In this document: positions 3,001 through 9,000 of the stretch, in pieces
Numbering within the stretch: the first letter of the stretch is position 1
How the letters are laid out: every line of letters starts with the position of its first letter
Source of the DNA: Microcoleaceae cyanobacterium
GTDB taxonomy: Bacteria; Cyanobacteriota; Cyanobacteriia; Cyanobacteriales; Microcoleaceae
NCBI GenBank assembly: GCA_051652765.1
Contig: JBOFUV010000113.1
Location: forward strand, 1-36,912
Direction of reading: 5' to 3'
DNA: 36,912 bases
Position numbers: made by a program

Positions 3001-6000
3001 CCCACTGACTTTAAGGACTCAAAATGGATGGCTTGGCGAGCCAATAAAATTACAGACTTTGTGATGCGACTCTTCTGGGCAATTAAAGATGCTAAGTCTA
3101 ACTGTATTTTGAGTCTATCTTCAAACACTCAAGCTTTTTCCTACAATTATTATTTACAAGATTGGCAAGCTTGGGAACGCAGTGGTTATCTGGAAGAGAT
3201 TGTTATGCAAGTCTATCGCAATAATCTGGAGTCATTCTCACCTGATCTACAACGACCTGAAGTATTAGAAGCCAAAATTCATGTTCCGTTTGGCATCGGT
3301 ATTTTAACAGGTTTAAAAGATCGACCTGCATCGTTGAAAATGATTAATGCCCAAGTTCAAGAAGTTCGAAAGCGGAGATTTGCTGGATTTGCATTCTTCT
3401 TCTATGAAAGTCTGAGGATGCTAACGGCTACAGAACCCGGAAAAACAGAGTTTCAAGCCCTATTCCCTTCCACATCTGAACGACCCAAGAGTATCGCAGC
3501 TTCGACTCCTCCAACCTTTTAATGTCTCTTGAATACTTCTAGCGCCGAGTTGGTATGATTACGATTCGTCCGTACTTAGACCAAGATTGGGAAGCGATTT
3601 GCCAGGTGCATGACCGAGCACAACCCAGTGAATTTGAAGGGATATTTGACAGTTCTCTAGTTGCTCCTCTAGCAGAGAATTTTAAGATTCGAAATATCCT
3701 TCCTCAAAGCCTTAAATTTGTCGCTTGTGAAGGCGAAAAAGTAGTGGGCTTTATTATCATGAATGATCACTCGATCAACCTGTTATACGTTGATCCAAAT
3801 TATCAAAATCAAGGAGTTGGCGCAAGATTGCTAACCTTAGCAATTAATATTATCGGCTCTCCGATTTGGACAGTAACGATTGCTGGAAATATGCGAGCCC
3901 GTCGGTTTTATGAACGGGCAGGGTTTAAACAGATGAACCAGTTTGAGGCCAAAGTGAAGGAAAAACCCTGTCAGTTTGTGCGATTGCAACGGCTTACCTA
4001 ATGATGGGATGAGAGGTGGGTAATCGCATCGATACAATGACCCAAAGCATGACTGACACAATGACCAGCATCACTTACCGTCTGTTCTATTGCTTGTAAA
4101 TCGCCTTCATCAGATGAAGACAGAACTTCATAAGCGGTCAAGTTAACAGTCTTACTCCCTCTAACTGAGAGTCTGTAACAATAACACTTGAGCTTGAATT
4201 CTGATGCATGTAAAGAGTTGGTAAAGCCATCGATGGAATCTTTGATTGCTCAACTCCTCGTATAAGATATATCGATAAGGTTAGAGCTATATATATTGTA
4301 TGAGTCCGCACCCCGCAAAGCCGGAACTGATTAGCACTCTAGATGTGCGTGGACATCCGCCCCGAATTTGTATTTTGGGTGGGGGTTTTGCCGGACTTTT
4401 CACTGCCTTGGAATTAAGTAAACAACTGAGCAAACAATCCTGGCGGGACGACCAAAAACCTCAAGTTACTCTAGTTAATAGTGAGTCTCGATTTTTATTC
4501 ACCCCATTTTTGTACGAACTCATCACTTCAGAATTGAAAACTTGGGAAGTGGCTCCAGCATTTGAAAAGTTGCTGGCTTACACTGATGTGCGATTTCATC
4601 AAGGAACAGTTCAGAGTGTCGATTTAAACCATCGTCAAGTTCACCTGCATTCTAGAGACGTTCTCGCCTACGATTATTTGGTGTTGGCAGTTGGGCGCGA
4701 GATGCGAGCTTGGGGCGAACTGGAAGAGGTCTCTAGACCTTCACTGTCCATTCGTGGATTTCGAACCTTGGCCGATGCTGAGTGGCTCCAGGAGAAACTT
4801 CAGGCGCTAGAAGCTTCAGATAGTTCCCTGATTCGGGTAGCGATTGTGGGAGGGGGACCAAACGGCGTGGAGCTAGCGGGCAAGCTAGCGGATCGGCTGG
4901 GAAAACGCGGGCAAATCCATCTGATCGTTCGGGGTTCACAGATTCTTAAGGACTTTACCCAATTTACCCGTCGTGTTGCTGACCAATCCCTAGTTCGACG
5001 GGGTGTGCAGTTAAGATTCCAGACCACAGTTGCTGCCGTAGGCGAAAATAGCATTACGCTTCGTTTTCAGAAAAACGCTCAGAATCAACTCACAGAACAA
5101 CCCCAAGAACAATCAGAAGAATTACCTGTGGACTTGGTGATTGGAACGGTCGGAACCCAGGCGAGGGACTGGATCACGCATCTGGAATGTCAGCACGATG
5201 CCATGAATCAATTGCTCACCCATCCAACTCTCCAGCTTGTGGATTATCCAGAGGTCTTTGCCGTAGGAGATTTGGCGGACATTCGCAACCATCGTGGCCA
5301 AAAAATCCCAGCTACGGCTCAAGCAGCGTTCCAACAGGGGAGCGCTGTTGCTAGAAACCTAATGGCACTTCTGCGAGGTCAATCTCTGCAACACTTTCAC
5401 TACCTGCATTTAGGAGAAATGCTCACCCTTGGAACTCAGGATGCGATCGTCGTTAGCTTCAGAATTTGCCTGCGGGGCAGACTGGCGTGTTTGGCAAGAC
5501 ATTGGATTTATATTCTGCTGCGAATGCCCACGTTGCATCATCGGGTACAGGTCACTCGATCGCGACTTCAAGTCCAAATGCAACTCCAATTTCAGTCATT
5601 ATTTCGGTTTTTTGGATTTAATAATTACAACGAATCTAACAGCTTTAACGGATCTACAAATTCCAATCATTCTGAAAGTAACCTACCCCAAAAAGTTATG
5701 ACGAATTCGTCTATGCATCAATCTCAATTTAGAGGGTTATCCGGTTTGATTTTAACAGTTCTAGTGACTCAATTGATGCTGGCATTTCGACTGCTTTGCT
5801 TGCCCAGTGCAATTTCAGCCCTGCCTAAATCTTTAAACTTGGCTTGTGATCCGATTCTCTATCCATTCTTATCCTATGCGATGTATTCCTATCCCAGATA
5901 TCCTGGACAAAAACTTGCTGACCATCAACTATTTGGAATCTTAGTGGATGGGACAGAGATTCCGGTAACTGAAAAGGAACTCGGAATTGGGTTGTACAAA

Positions 6001-9000
6001 TTTAAAAAAGCCTATATGAAGCCCATTCGAGAGGGAAAATCAGAAGCAATTCAGTCTTTATTTGAATTGTATCAACAAAACAATCGGCAGAAATTAGTGC
6101 ATTTAGTGTTGAAGTCCTATCCCGTTACGATTACAAAATCAGGGATTCAGCAGCGACCCATGGAAACAAGAATCATTCCAATTCAACCACTGTAGTGTTC
6201 CCCACAAATCCACTGCTCAAGTTTAGAAGAATCAATTCAGAATTGTTTGGAACATAATTAGGAGAATTGTTAATGCAGCTACAAGCAACTCAAAATATCT
6301 GGATTCAGCGCTGGCAGGAGTATTGGTTTGCGCCTTCTCCCCTATTTGACTTGGCAATTTGTCGAATTGTTGTTGTTTTGTTTCAGGTCACTTATTTTTT
6401 TCGGTACGAGACACATGCGAAAGTGCTGGATTTATCAGCAACTTCAGAGGAGTTGTATGATCCATTGCCTCCGGTTCGGGCTTTAACCTTTTTCTTTGGC
6501 TTTGATAACCCTCCACCCAACGAATTTTTGAGTTTAATTTTTTGGGTAACTCTGATTTCTGGATTATCTGCTTTAGTTGGACTTCAAACTCGCTTGAGCC
6601 TGATCATTTTTGCAATTGGCAATCTTTTTATCCAGTCCTTTTTGTATTCTTTTGGTGAACATCATCATCCCCAAGGCTTGATTCTGATTACCTTTTTTCT
6701 ATTGGCCTTTAGTCCAGCAGGCAAAGTATTGTCCGCAGATGATTTAATCCAACGGCTGCGGCAGAACATTCGACGTAGAAAATTTACAGCCTTCAGCTTA
6801 GTTGATGAATACAGTGAATTTGCAAAATGGTCACTGCGTTTGGTGCAATGCTTGCTCGCGCTTGCTTACTTGAGTGCAGCGGTCAGTAAAATAGCAGCAG
6901 GGGGTCTAGACTGGATGAACGGTTACACCTTGCAATTCTACCTTCTCGCCGACGGATTTCTCTGGGATCGACCTTTGGGGATTTTCCTGTCTCAGAACCA
7001 TTTTCTCTGTGTCATCTTCTCTTGGATGGCCATAATTTTTGAGGGAACATTTTTCTTAGTCTTAATTTTTCCAAGATTAGTCTGGCTCTACATTCCTGCA
7101 GGAACCTCCTTTCACATCGGCATTTATCTAGCGCAATGGGCACCCTTTTTTCAGTTTGTCACCTTGTATTGTGTATTTTTACCTTGGGCAGCACTAGTGA
7201 AAATCCTGTCTCGCCGTTTGTGGCGCTACCGAACTGATCAGAAACCCGAAGTTCTATTTGATGGTGAGTGTCCGCTATGTATTGGTTGCATGACTGTGGT
7301 GTGTTACTTGGACTGGTTCCAGTGGATCACCTACAGTGACCTGCAATCCCGCTGGCCAGAACTGGTAGAAACCCATCCTGAAATTTCCTTGAAAGCCTGT
7401 CTAGGGGAAATGCATCTGATTTTGCCGAACAATGGGGTGCGACGAGGGTTTTTTGCCTTTCGGAATATAGTTTGCTATCTGCCTGCCCTGTGGCCACTTT
7501 GGCCCATTTTGTATTTCCCTGGTATGTCCTACCTGGGCGATCGCACATACCGCTTTGTGGCTGCTCACCGTCCCCGCTTTGTACAAAGTTGTAGTTCCGG
7601 CGCTTGTTCAATTGGTACGGATCGAGACATCAAAAGGCTTTGATTCTCCTCTGAACAGTTCCGGTATCAAAGGGTCAGCGTTCCTGGTTTGACAGAGAAG
7701 AAGTATAACTGGCAGAACTTCTCAAAGATTTTAAGAGGGTTTTGCAGCTTGATTTTCTGTTCAGGATCGCCGATGTAAAATACTCAGTAACTTTTTCATT
7801 TCTAACGGTAAAGGTGCAACGGCCTCAATTTTTTCTCCTGAAACTGGGTGTTGCAACGTTAACTTCCAGGCATGAAGGGCTTGACCTTGGAGGTTGACCC
7901 CAAGAGAATGTCCTCGGCTGTAGTCTGGATCACCCACAACAGGATGTCCAATCCATGCAGAGTGTACTCGAATTTGATGGGTACGCCCTGTGCCCAGAAG
8001 AAAATGCACTAGAGTATAGTTGCCTAGACGTTCTTGAATCTGCCAATGGGTCACTGCTTCCCGCCCGCCTTTTTCAACTGGAATCACTGCCATTTTAAGG
8101 CGATCGCCTAAATGCCGACCAATGGGTTGATCAATTGTGCCAAAATCATCCTTGGGCGCACCATAAACAATTCCTAAATATTCTCGACGGGCTGTTTTTC
8201 TCCGAATTTGATCTTGTAAATGTTGCAATACAAAATCTGTTTTTGCAACTACAATTGTCCCCGTTGTATTTTTGTCTAAACGATGGACAATTCCAGGTCG
8301 TTGGACTCCACCAATTCCAGCTAGAGCATCACAATGGGCTAATAAAGCATTCACTAAGGTATCGTTCTCATGACCTGCAGAAGGATGAACCACTAACCCA
8401 GCAGGTTTATTGATAATAATTAATGCCTCGTCTTCATACAAAATATCGAGGGGAAACTCTAGAGGTTTCAACTCCAAGGGTTCGGCTTTGGGAATTAAAA
8501 CTTGGATGCGATCGCCAACTTTAACGATCTCTTTTTTTGATTGGCAAATGATTTCATTGATCTGCACTTGCCCTTGAGAAATTAAAGTCTGAATGCGCGA
8601 TCGCGATAGTTTTGCAACGTGATCTGCCAACCAACGATCAAGCCGTTGAGTTCCAAACTGTTCCAGATCAGAGTCATTGGATACTGTGAGAACAATGGTT
8701 TGTTCTATGCTCATTTTGAAGTACTCATCTTAAAATCCTCATTCTAAAGCATTCATCTTGAAGAGTCTTATTCTTGCTCAATTGTAATTTCCCAGGTTTC
8801 CAGGGTTGTTCCGACTTCTTGATTCAGATTTGTCAATGCATTTAAGTACTCAATTCTAGCATTTAGTTCTTCATTGCGCGAGCGCCCCAGATCATCTCGA
8901 AACCTAACTAGATCAATACTTGAAGTATTTTCAACGCCCAATCTCAGTTTCTCTTCTTCATTACGAAGTTCCTGTTCTGCAAGTTCCGTAACCCGCTGGG

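Follow-up and report, generated by a model that had tools for sequence, protein, structure and literature searches.

The closest described systems belong to the vitamin K cycle and to a recently proposed pair of bacterial proteins. Carboxylation precedents are the gamma-glutamyl carboxylase (GGCX) of animals and MloH, which acts on a polyketide-peptide intermediate, and both have been compared with HTTM-DCC proteins in a preprint (10.64898/2026.08.19.745780). In the same preprint, a complex of a DUF5819 protein with an HTTM-DCC protein was proposed for Melghirimyces thermohalophilus, on the basis of structure prediction only (ipSAE 0.806). The lumenal carboxylase/clamp region of GGCX lies around human residues 374-418 (PMC13486548), and FSP1 has been described as the mammalian vitamin K reductase (PMC9929328, PMC9402432). 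NdbB of Synechocystis and NDC1 of plants are demethylphylloquinone reductases (Fatihi et al. 2015, as cited in PMC13452876). The relevant passages of this 2026 review state that no naphthoquinone epoxides are known from bacteria and plants.

The window, that is, the whole stretch of 36,912 nucleotides that was analyzed, is a contig from the 158-contig draft genome of a Microcoleaceae cyanobacterium. It probably, though with considerable reserve, encodes a three-part membrane enzyme module, a quinol-fed HTTM complex, which is written here as two ORFs (Table 1). Comparison of related loci shows a conserved core consisting of a single-helix small subunit and a polytopic HTTM protein, with the DCC domain fused or encoded in an adjacent gene. 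By the same comparison, a dedicated paralogue of the type II NAD(P)H:quinone oxidoreductases (NDH-2) is placed directly upstream in filamentous cyanobacteria.

Table 1. Features of the module, in window coordinates.
Feature	Position	Strand	Evidence or remark
NDH-2 (type II NAD(P)H:quinone oxidoreductase) part	4300..5559	+	residues 1-420 of the fused ORF
T6 run that keeps the fused frame open	5608..5613	+	sequence
Asn/Ser-rich linker, residues 441-466	5620..5697	+	no Pfam match; aligned with the spacer of relatives
Small subunit, residues 467-631, ancestral ATG 5698	5698..6195	+	phmmer family, alignment, AF2, neighbourhood
HTTM-DCC protein	6267..7643	+	Pfam, AF2, Foldseek; probable start ATG 6273
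HTTM domain, residues 76-285	6492..7121	+	PF05090, 45.6 bits (cut-off 27.7)
DCC1-like thiol-disulfide oxidoreductase domain, residues 329-438	7251..7580	+	PF04134, 59.2 bits (cut-off 27.8)

The first ORF (631 aa, 4300-6195, forward strand) starts as an NDH-2 reductase and runs into the small subunit. Pyr_redox_2 covers residues 22-347 (Pfam, E 4.6e-36), and the closest solved relatives in the PDB are NDH-2 enzymes, over residues 21-399 (matches with E 3.6e-23 over residues 21-386); FSP1 is also among the solved relatives of this part. The protein has the glycine motifs of both dinucleotide-binding sites as well as the GD motif, and the two dinucleotide-binding folds and the full-length likeness to solved NDH-2 enzymes place the protein in this family. 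In addition, the enzyme is intact at 65 of the 66 family-invariant positions. A second NDH-2 paralogue in the same genome, 48% identical, represents the universal paralogue that all 41 relatives carry (41/41). The 12 NDH-2 proteins that are directly linked to HTTM form one clade apart from this universal paralogue (SH-aLRT 99, quick tree), and members of this clade were seen nowhere but next to HTTM-DCC genes. All 12 have Val-Arg behind the second dinucleotide-binding motif, versus Glu-Arg in the universal clade. The preliminary description had named the protein a second copy of NdbB. It is indeed a further NDH-2 paralogue, but orthology with the NdbB lineage was rejected, since an earlier comparison equates the universal clade with NdbB and the protein of the window falls in a separate one.

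The second ORF encodes the HTTM-DCC protein. Its start is probably the ATG at 6273, which is preceded by AGGAG; the domain numbers given earlier are offset by two residues owing to a different choice of start codon. Both domains reported before were recovered above their Pfam cut-offs. The AF2 model has a pLDDT of 93.8, and when it was searched with Foldseek, ranks 1-16 were all human GGCX (best E 6.6e-5, probability 1.00, TMq 0.46), with 321 aligned columns at 17-18% identity. The protein is thus assigned to the HTTM superfamily by a profile match above the curated cut-off together with the GGCX transmembrane fold, and its second domain to the DCC1-like family by its profile match and a conserved CxxC. 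K208 (codon at 6888-6890), H133, H134, W188, W216, T221 and F294 are invariant in the alignment of 43 HTTM sequences (43/43). Of the 38 aligned sequences with a DCC domain, 37 retain Cys335 of the CxxC (7269-7280), and 37 likewise retain Cys338. Neither the single HTTM-DCC protein nor the family profiles gave a sequence match to GGCX; therefore, the correspondence of Lys208 with GGCX Lys218 is inferred rather than aligned. A stretch rich in Lys and Arg (residues 307-321, four K/R) precedes the DCC domain, and this charge distribution suggests that the domain is probably cytoplasmic, on the membrane face opposite the invariant Lys208.

Beyond about residue 420 of the fused ORF, an Asn-rich linker leads to one predicted transmembrane (TM) helix, which is followed by a domain of about 130 aa, in agreement with the helix-plus-domain extension described before. 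A conserved aromatic/proline motif stands right behind the helix, and the part after it, about 100 aa, is made up of strands and helices (AF2 pLDDT 88.2). The extension has no Pfam match, even at E<=10, while phmmer retrieved 219 cluster representatives of small-subunit homologues at E<=0.001; the best 150 of these 219 are all free-standing proteins of 103-268 aa. The gene for this subunit lies directly upstream of the HTTM gene in 46 of 48 loci (43 at E<=4.1e-17 and three weak), which span cyanobacteria, Chloroflexota, Verrucomicrobiota, Acidobacteriota, Gemmatimonadota, Proteobacteria and others. The docking of the extension on HTTM proposed previously was reproduced with fresh alignments. 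The complex model of small subunit and HTTM-DCC reached an ipSAE of 0.83, 0.84 and 0.83 in three runs, versus 0.00 for the best of three controls; among solved complexes 116 of 157 reach the mark, among mismatched pairs 2 of 215. The runs share at least 97% of contacts, and the partner pLDDT is at least 78. Predicted contacts involve small-subunit residues 7-30 and 52-76; the conserved motif is placed on K208, W216 and T221, and K208 lies inside the predicted interface. The homologues that precede HTTM in 46 of 48 loci, together with a complex model that clears its controls, support the predicted role of the C-terminal extension as a real partner of the HTTM protein.

It had been considered that this docking domain is a DUF5819-type subunit. 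This identification (PF19136) was rejected: the window's small subunit has no hit at E<=10, none was seen in 66 family members, and hhalign gave a probability of 2%, a comparison of low sensitivity as only three close DUF5819 sequences were available. None of 301 cyanobacterial genomes gave a DUF5819 protein, and the window's genome gave none even at E<=1. The small subunit does share the DUF5819 layout of an N-terminal TM helix and a domain, encoded next to HTTM. Three DUF5819 genes of Chloroflexota lie just upstream of HTTM-type genes, two of which (2/3) were scored by Pfam HTTM, one above the cut-off. As judged from sequence, Pfam has no model for the family of the small subunit, which is not detectably DUF5819.

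HTTM is rare in cyanobacteria, as had been noted: the profile matched 11 of 401 genomes, including that of the window, and close orthologues (>400 bits) occur in four. The window's genome has a single HTTM, MenD, one further DCC1-like gene and the two VKOR homologues listed earlier. Across the 48 loci, DCC is fused to HTTM in 26 and has a neighbouring gene of its own in at least 11 others; in about ten, it was not found. A dedicated NDH-2 paralogue lies directly upstream in 12 of the 48 loci, which are of the Oscillatoriales type, and also in genome G009 and in the window. In a genome of the same genus (G002), NDH-2 is a remnant while the small-subunit and HTTM genes are intact; it is absent beside the copy of G012 and from the retrieved DNA beside many cyanobacterial copies, indicating that NDH-2 is dispensable in evolution. 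In-frame stops in module genes, seen in 4 of 13 related loci, suggest erosion or poor assemblies. MenD above the cut-off was found in none of five proteobacterial genomes with the module (G330 is unpublished, and the completeness of all five is not known), and an MqnA-family gene in one, leaving four of the five without a naphthoquinone pathway found. Therefore, a naphthoquinone cannot be the cofactor of the whole family. Upstream of the module in the window, 2.6 kb away, stands a gene for an RTX calcium-binding repeat protein, which is not a recurrent neighbour in the 48 loci. Taken over the two types of the module, genes for ArnC-like GT2, PMT/ArnT-like GT-C, MBOAT and sulfotransferase proteins recur as neighbours.

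The other type (type B) is a paralogous HTTM-DCC protein of about 630 aa in other cyanobacteria (HH probability 98.6% versus type A, the type of the window). Another NDH-2 clade lies directly upstream of 8 of the 11 type B genes, in all eight genomes that have them (8/8). In type B, a TM-plus-domain part is fused to the protein's own C-terminus, whereas type A has a separate upstream gene. This extension gave no significant match to the small subunit (probability 6%) or to DUF5819 (9.6%, one shared motif). LMF1, a lipase maturation factor family linked to ER redox balance, is weakly matched by type B proteins as well (E 0.00095 and 0.0055), and MBOAT genes flank type B in all three loci with flanks inspected (3/3). 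These HTTM-DCC-extension proteins are apparently undescribed. The dedicated clade upstream in 12 of 48 loci, together with type B having its own NDH-2, supports a putative functional tie between NDH-2 and HTTM-DCC.

A mechanism can be proposed in which NDH-2, on the cytoplasmic face, would use NAD(P)H to reduce a quinone of the membrane, either phylloquinone or plastoquinone in this organism. The quinol would enter a pocket of HTTM beside the invariant Lys208, near the outer face, which the helix and conserved motif of the small subunit may close. By analogy with GGCX, the quinol and O2 could then yield an epoxide and a strong base acting on a substrate, and the CxxC of the cytoplasmic DCC domain could return the oxidized quinone to the pool. 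Specific use of phylloquinone, carboxylation of the substrate and recycling of an epoxide by DCC are all putative. The gene neighbours suggest an envelope glycan or lipid-linked sugar as the substrate rather than a Gla protein. Several observations speak against the mechanism: the probable place of DCC on the membrane face opposite Lys208, the lack of a sequence match to GGCX, the proteobacterial hosts without a naphthoquinone pathway found, the loci without an intact NDH-2, the in-frame stops in module genes and the statement in PMC13452876 on naphthoquinone epoxides. A bolder and doubtful extension is that cyanobacteria run vitamin K-type carbanion/epoxidase chemistry on their envelope, with a dedicated NAD(P)H:phylloquinone reductase feeding a GGCX-fold enzyme that modifies exopolysaccharide or polyprenyl-linked sugar and not a protein. 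This reading is suggested by the recurrent ArnC-like GT2, PMT/ArnT-like GT-C, MBOAT and sulfotransferase genes; in one candidate reaction, a proton would be removed beside the carboxylate of a uronic acid, with carboxylation or epimerization as the outcome. If correct, the vitamin K cycle would here be directed at glycans, and the DCC CxxC would take the place of VKOR.

Two other functions have to be weighed. The module may be a thiol-redox device rather than an oxygenase, with HTTM binding quinone as VKOR and DsbB do and with neither epoxide nor carbanion formed; DCC would link cytoplasmic thiols with the quinone pool by electron transfer, and NDH-2 would set the redox state of the quinone. 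DCC, with its conserved CxxC, is the most constant companion of HTTM after the small subunit, and the LMF1 matches of type B, the hosts without a detected naphthoquinone pathway and the lack of reported bacterial naphthoquinone epoxides in the passages of PMC13452876 point the same way. This function is nevertheless unlikely, as GGCX is the only clear structural relative, the invariant Lys is at the same general place as that of GGCX, and DCC was not found in about 10 of 48 loci. It is highly improbable that the complex carboxylates Glu (or Asp) residues of a secreted cyanobacterial protein as a true protein carboxylase, making them calcium-binding. The GGCX fold, the comparison with MloH and GGCX in the preprint (10.64898/2026.08.19.745780) and the nearby RTX gene would fit it, but that gene does not recur, none of the genes conserved beside the module in the 48 loci encodes a propeptide-bearing or Glu-rich substrate, and the small subunit has no match to the lumenal part of GGCX.

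The quinol-fed HTTM complex would be the same whether or not its first two parts are joined. The preliminary description reported the fusion from few genomes; the two ORFs and their domains were found again (Pfam, solved relatives), but the comparison indicates that the fusion is not a conserved architecture. In all 13 related loci (13/13), the NDH-2 stop codon, at a place aligned with a potential stop in the window, precedes a separate small-subunit gene by 44-103 nt, and we read the linker as this former intergenic spacer, now translated. The fusion occurs in the window's assembly only, with no other fused protein among those of 347-1105 aa or in the best 150 of the 219 phmmer cluster representatives. 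It is most likely a recent stop-codon loss in a single genome or an assembly slip in the T run. With one extra T, the NDH-2 frame would end in TAA TAA at 5620-5625 (frame 2 of the spacer reads FWI and then two stops). An artefact of this kind, with a true T7 and a separate small subunit, is a serious if less probable explanation: the fusion hangs on a single homopolymer base in a draft genome, and neither the 13 relatives nor the searched proteins have it. However, six T make a short run for short-read assemblies to get wrong systematically; across the 26-codon spacer, frame 0 has no stop and leads exactly into the ancestral ATG, and the remainder of the ORF has no sign of error. A real fusion may be tolerated because the N-terminus of the small subunit faces the cytoplasm, while an artefact would leave the biology of the three-gene module unaltered.

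Compared with known systems, the reductase shares its NDH-2 subfamily with NdbB and NDC1 and is 48% identical to the universal paralogue equated with NdbB, but differs in its separate clade and its exclusive HTTM-DCC neighbours. With GGCX, the complex shares the transmembrane fold (Foldseek probability 1.00, about 320 columns, 17-18% identity), a likely quinol supplier of the NDH-2 family, parallel to FSP1, and a CxxC redox partner, which in the case of GGCX is VKOR. In contrast to GGCX, the polypeptide seems to lack the lumenal domain and to have a separate small subunit in its stead, the DCC domain is unrelated to VKOR and probably cytoplasmic, and the components are adjacent, partly fused genes. 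The small subunit is not DUF5819 by any test, and the passages of the preprint on the Melghirimyces pair do not mention NDH-2; that pair is nevertheless alike in its HTTM-DCC architecture (447 aa versus 456/458 aa here), its neighbouring gene, whose product has a single TM helix at the N-terminus and then a domain, its confident predicted complex (ipSAE 0.806 versus 0.83 here) and, as it seems, conserved Lys, Trp and Phe at similar spacing.

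The preliminary description had named an NDH-2 (type II NAD(P)H:quinone oxidoreductase) with a C-terminal extension, followed by a gene for an HTTM-DCC protein, and this pair is confirmed by both the open reading frames (ORFs) and their Pfam domains. In the NDH-2 ORF, Pyr_redox_2 covers residues 22-347 (E 4.6e-36), and the top solved relatives are bacterial NDH-2 enzymes, which match residues 21-399, with FSP1 lower in the list. Past about residue 420, the ORF continues with an Asn/Ser-rich stretch, a single hydrophobic helix and about 130 further residues; this part has no Pfam match, even at E<=10. 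In the second ORF, HTTM is located at residues 76-285 and a DCC1-like domain at residues 329-438, both above the Pfam cut-offs, and the protein matches no NCBIfam family at E<=0.01. A kinship with the SdpA/SdpB pair of Bacillus subtilis is possible. The same genome carries one HTTM gene, two VKOR homologs and one further DCC1-like gene. None of the five flanking genes in the table recurs beside the module in other loci, and promoter and terminator scans of positions 3900-7900 of the window gave chance-level results.

Features of the module and its flanks, with the loci of the second HTTM-DCC lineage (type B)
Feature	Position	Strand	Remark
RTX calcium-binding repeat protein	610-1701		upstream of the module
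SLH-domain GHL10 glycosidase-like protein	1810-3522		upstream of the module
GNAT acetyltransferase	3555-4001		upstream of the module
Fused ORF (NDH-2 and small subunit)	4300-6195	+	single ORF, 631 aa
Val-Arg site of NDH-2	about 4915-4929		residues 206-210, aligned with relatives
T6 run	5608-5613	+	just 5' of the former spacer
Former-spacer position	5620-5697	+	26 codons; intergenic spacer of relatives at the same place
Ancestral small-subunit ATG	5698	+	directly after the 26 codons
HTTM-DCC ORF	6267-7643	+	probable start ATG 6273, preceded by AGGAG
RluD	7761-8714	-	downstream of the module
TolC-like outer membrane protein	8768-10810	-	downstream of the module
Type B loci	L108 (G022:C288), L107 (G012:C228), L069 (G030:C1), L034:229-3643
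Type B by coordinates	G013, G024, G031, G036

The fusion had initially been read as an enzyme architecture, a reading that is not supported by the comparison with other genomes. In all 13 related loci with NDH-2 directly upstream, the genes are separate, the NDH-2 stop being followed by 44-103 nt and then by the small-subunit ATG, with a relative frame of 0, 1 or 2, and the fusion is confined to one genome. An exhaustive phmmer search of fused residues 425-631 against 1.84 billion representatives found 219 proteins with E<=0.001, of which the top-scoring 150 are all 103-268 aa long and thus free-standing, and a word-based search for a second fused protein among proteins of 347-1105 aa returned the query alone. 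The NDH-2 part of the window aligns with the C-termini of its relatives as far as residue 440, and when one T is added to the T6 run, the NDH-2 frame continues for two codons and ends at TAA TAA. Since the genes of the relatives are separate and the fusion depends on this T6 run, it is a one-genome event, caused either by the recent loss of one base or by a slip in the assembly. The fusion itself, known from the assembly alone, is incidental. The NDH-2 part is not decaying: of 66 positions that never vary among the other 31 sequences, it retains 65, the sole change being Tyr to Phe.

When the HTTM-DCC alignment (A2) was scanned against one genome per species, 48 loci were obtained, labeled as cyanobacteria, Chloroflexota, Omnitrophota, Verrucomicrobiota, Acidobacteriota, Gemmatimonadota, Alpha- and Gammaproteobacteria, Planctomycetota, Bdellovibrionota and a Parcubacteria bin. 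In 46 of them, the ORF immediately preceding HTTM is matched by the small-subunit profile (A3), with E<=4.1e-17 in 43 cases and weakly in three; the upstream DNA is missing for one of the two loci with no match. A word-based profile search with the small subunit gave eight matches, none of them assigned to a Pfam family. HTTM and DCC form one protein in 26 of the 48 loci, and DCC is encoded by a separate adjoining gene in at least 11 others (Pfam-verified for one). Each cysteine of its CxxC motif is retained in 37 of the 38 aligned domain-bearing sequences. In the proteobacterial loci L045 and L047-L054, DCC is separate and lies downstream of HTTM, and a conserved ORF with no Pfam match comes next, after which L045 and L047 have an FkbM-type methyltransferase domain. 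The small subunit adds a second family of HTTM small subunits, one that has no Pfam model.

Twelve of the 48 loci, labeled Lyngbya, Limnoraphis, Capilliphycus, Planktothrix, Oscillatoriales or cyanobacterial bins, have NDH-2 immediately in front of the small-subunit gene, and the same order is seen in genome G009 and the window. All 41 relatives searched carry an NDH-2 paralog with 42-51% identity, and the linked copies share 57-60% identity with that of the window. In a quick IQ-TREE search with 34 rows, which omits the broken NDH-2 of loci L017 and L041 and includes the paralogs as match regions only, the 12 directly linked copies group in a single clade (SH-aLRT 99) and the universal paralogs in a second (100). 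Where the universal clade has Glu-Arg behind the second dinucleotide-binding motif, Val-Arg is found in each of the 12 linked copies. In NDH-2 enzymes, this position probably bears on the choice between NADH and NADPH, and Val-Arg may shift the preference of the linked enzymes. The link of the reductase to HTTM-DCC gains comparative support. A paper linking HTTM with NDH-2 or NdbB was not found in a literature search that left most subscription journals and the supplements of a bioRxiv preprint outside its reach.

A third NDH-2 clade (genomes G012, G022 and G010, and the Coleofasciculus locus L034) pointed to the type B proteins of about 630 aa, in which HTTM (about 28-298) and DCC (about 318-418) are followed by a C-terminal extension of about 210 aa consisting of a TM helix and a domain. 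Type B is homologous to type A, the window-like HTTM-DCC with a separate small subunit (hhalign probability 98.6%, E 9e-16, 372 columns). Among the 41 relatives, 11 type B genes are present in eight genomes; by their coordinates, six lie 29-250 nt and two 2.7-3.2 kb downstream of an NDH-2 match, and the contigs of the other three yield none at E<=1e-40. Because two HTTM-DCC lineages each have their own NDH-2 lineage upstream, NDH-2 is probably functionally tied to HTTM-DCC, and these parallel lineages are the strongest evidence for the tie. In G010 (L106:4505-5515), an ArnC/GtrB-like GT2 adjoins an NDH-2 of the type B clade that has no HTTM alongside.

The AF2 model of HTTM-DCC (pLDDT 93.8) has human GGCX for all its 16 top Foldseek matches (best E 6.6e-5, probability 1.00, TMq 0.46; about 320 columns with 17-18% identity). 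The GGCX chain was not reached from sequence by phmmer with the protein or by two family profiles, at E up to 1 or 10. Across 43 sequences, H133, H134, W188, K208, W216, T221 and F294 are invariant. The small-subunit model (pLDDT 88.2) consists of a TM helix followed by a short conserved aromatic/proline segment and a domain of strands and helices, and a convincing PDB match for it was not found. The docking of the extension on HTTM, proposed in the preliminary description, was reproduced when the small subunit and HTTM-DCC were modeled together with both alignments, with ipSAE values of 0.83, 0.84 and 0.83 (best of three controls 0.00), which express model confidence and no measurement, and to whose pass the solved GGCX structures may contribute in part. 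Among solved complexes, 116 of 157 attain the ipSAE mark, compared with 2 of 215 mismatched pairs; between runs, at least 97% of contacts agree, with a partner pLDDT of at least 78. In the predicted complex, the small-subunit helix (residues 7-30) runs alongside HTTM helix 184-218 and packs against it, and the conserved segment (52-76) covers K208, W216 and T221. The docking gains comparative support.

The K/R-rich loops 148-183 (seven K/R) and 307-321 (four K/R) of HTTM-DCC should be cytoplasmic, which would place Lys208 and the small-subunit domain outside and the DCC domain inside. The charge bias flanking the small-subunit helix is indecisive (2.3 vs 2.0 K/R; N-in favored in 27 of 62 sequences). 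The parallel packing on helix 184-218 and the type B order of cytoplasmic DCC, TM helix and domain suggest that this helix runs N-in, C-out, the orientation required for fusion to an NDH-2 in the cytoplasm.

As a prediction, the idea of such a small subunit has already been published: a 2026 preprint (10.64898/2026.08.19.745780) predicts a complex of DUF5819 and HTTM-DCC in a firmicute and compares it with GGCX and MloH. That the present small subunit is DUF5819 itself was rejected on sequence: there are no profile matches and none among 66 family members, the hhalign probability is 2% (with a shallow DUF5819 alignment of three sequences), and DUF5819 occurs in 0 of 301 cyanobacterial genomes. 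It was likewise not matched by the ORFs upstream of HTTM in L056, L059, L060, L061 and L062, or by those flanking a distant HTTM match in L008. The three aligned DUF5819 proteins come from 2 of 301 genomes in the phylum to which L031 (labeled Phototrophicaceae) belongs, and their genes lie just upstream of HTTM-type genes, with Pfam HTTM for two of the three downstream genes, one above the cut-off. The type B extension resembles the small subunit in fused form, although the sequence likeness is not significant (hhalign probability 6%, with a shallow type B alignment of eight sequences); neither is that to DUF5819 (9.6%, shallow alignments of eight vs three sequences). The sole element common to all three is a short aromatic/proline motif right after the TM helix.

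Four of the 13 related type A loci have an in-frame stop in one module gene (NDH-2 in L017 and L041, HTTM in L025, DCC in L016), and internal stops are listed for 4 of the 11 type B matches (G023, G024, G030 and G031). These could reflect erosion of an accessory module or draft-assembly errors. In the closest relative, G002, of the same genus and with a 79% identical HTTM-DCC, NDH-2 is reduced to codons 366-420 with an in-frame TAG (L010:4264-4428), and the small subunit and HTTM-DCC are intact. In G009 (L067:4133-6047), NDH-2 and the small subunit are present and HTTM-DCC is absent. In Planktothrix paucivesiculata PCC 9631 (L026:5371-9456), the small subunit and HTTM-DCC form a tandem duplicate behind one NDH-2 gene. 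HTTM was earlier described as rare, which agrees with its presence in 11 of 401 genomes of an even sample of the phylum, with close orthologs in four. From the in-frame stops and this rarity, the module is accessory and patchy.

The host, which has MenD (465 bits), makes a naphthoquinone. Among five module-bearing proteobacterial genomes, none of which has a completeness figure and one of which (G330) is unpublished, MenD is above the cut-off in none (best 81 bits vs 244), and an MqnA-family gene is present in one. Judging from this gene content, vitamin K cannot serve as the cofactor family-wide, and each host may use its own quinol. Epoxidation, carboxylation, the role of DCC and the use of phylloquinone are what we infer for the module. 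A conserved substrate-like gene was not found beside it in the 48 loci. ArnC/GtrB-like GT2 genes, which resemble NCBIfam polyprenyl-phosphate sugar transferases at scores under the equivalog cut-offs, are recurrent beside the module in four phyla; the ArnC-like GT2 adjoins it in L031, L033, L034 and L043 and is nearby in L030, L032, L038 and L055. In addition, another GT2 sits between mraY and NDH-2 in L023-L026, a PMT/ArnT-like GT-C is found in L034, and a glycosidase-like gene lies downstream of the module in six loci. The type B flanks contain MBOAT genes in all three loci inspected, and sulfotransferases in L106 and L107. These recurrent neighbors suggest envelope glycans as the place for a substrate search, a lead only, since GT2 genes are common.

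In bacteria, relatives of the vitamin K carboxylase occur widely, and to our knowledge, MloH is the only one for which function and quinol use are known. That NDH-2 directly precedes two separate HTTM-DCC lineages is the first argument from genomes for quinol feeding. The three-gene minimal set can be co-expressed and assayed for epoxide formation, which makes this question testable; a positive assay, if obtained, would revise the existing picture for cyanobacteria.

Among known systems, carboxylase-like epoxidases of giant viruses are described as fused to desaturases, with residues K218, D263 and N290 (PMC13486548). NdbB/NDC1 is given as a reductase required before MenG in PMC13452876, citing Fatihi et al. 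2015. FSP1 is a vitamin K reductase according to PMC9929328 and PMC9402432, and the mammalian pairing of FSP1 with GGCX is paralleled here by NDH-2 upstream of HTTM-DCC.
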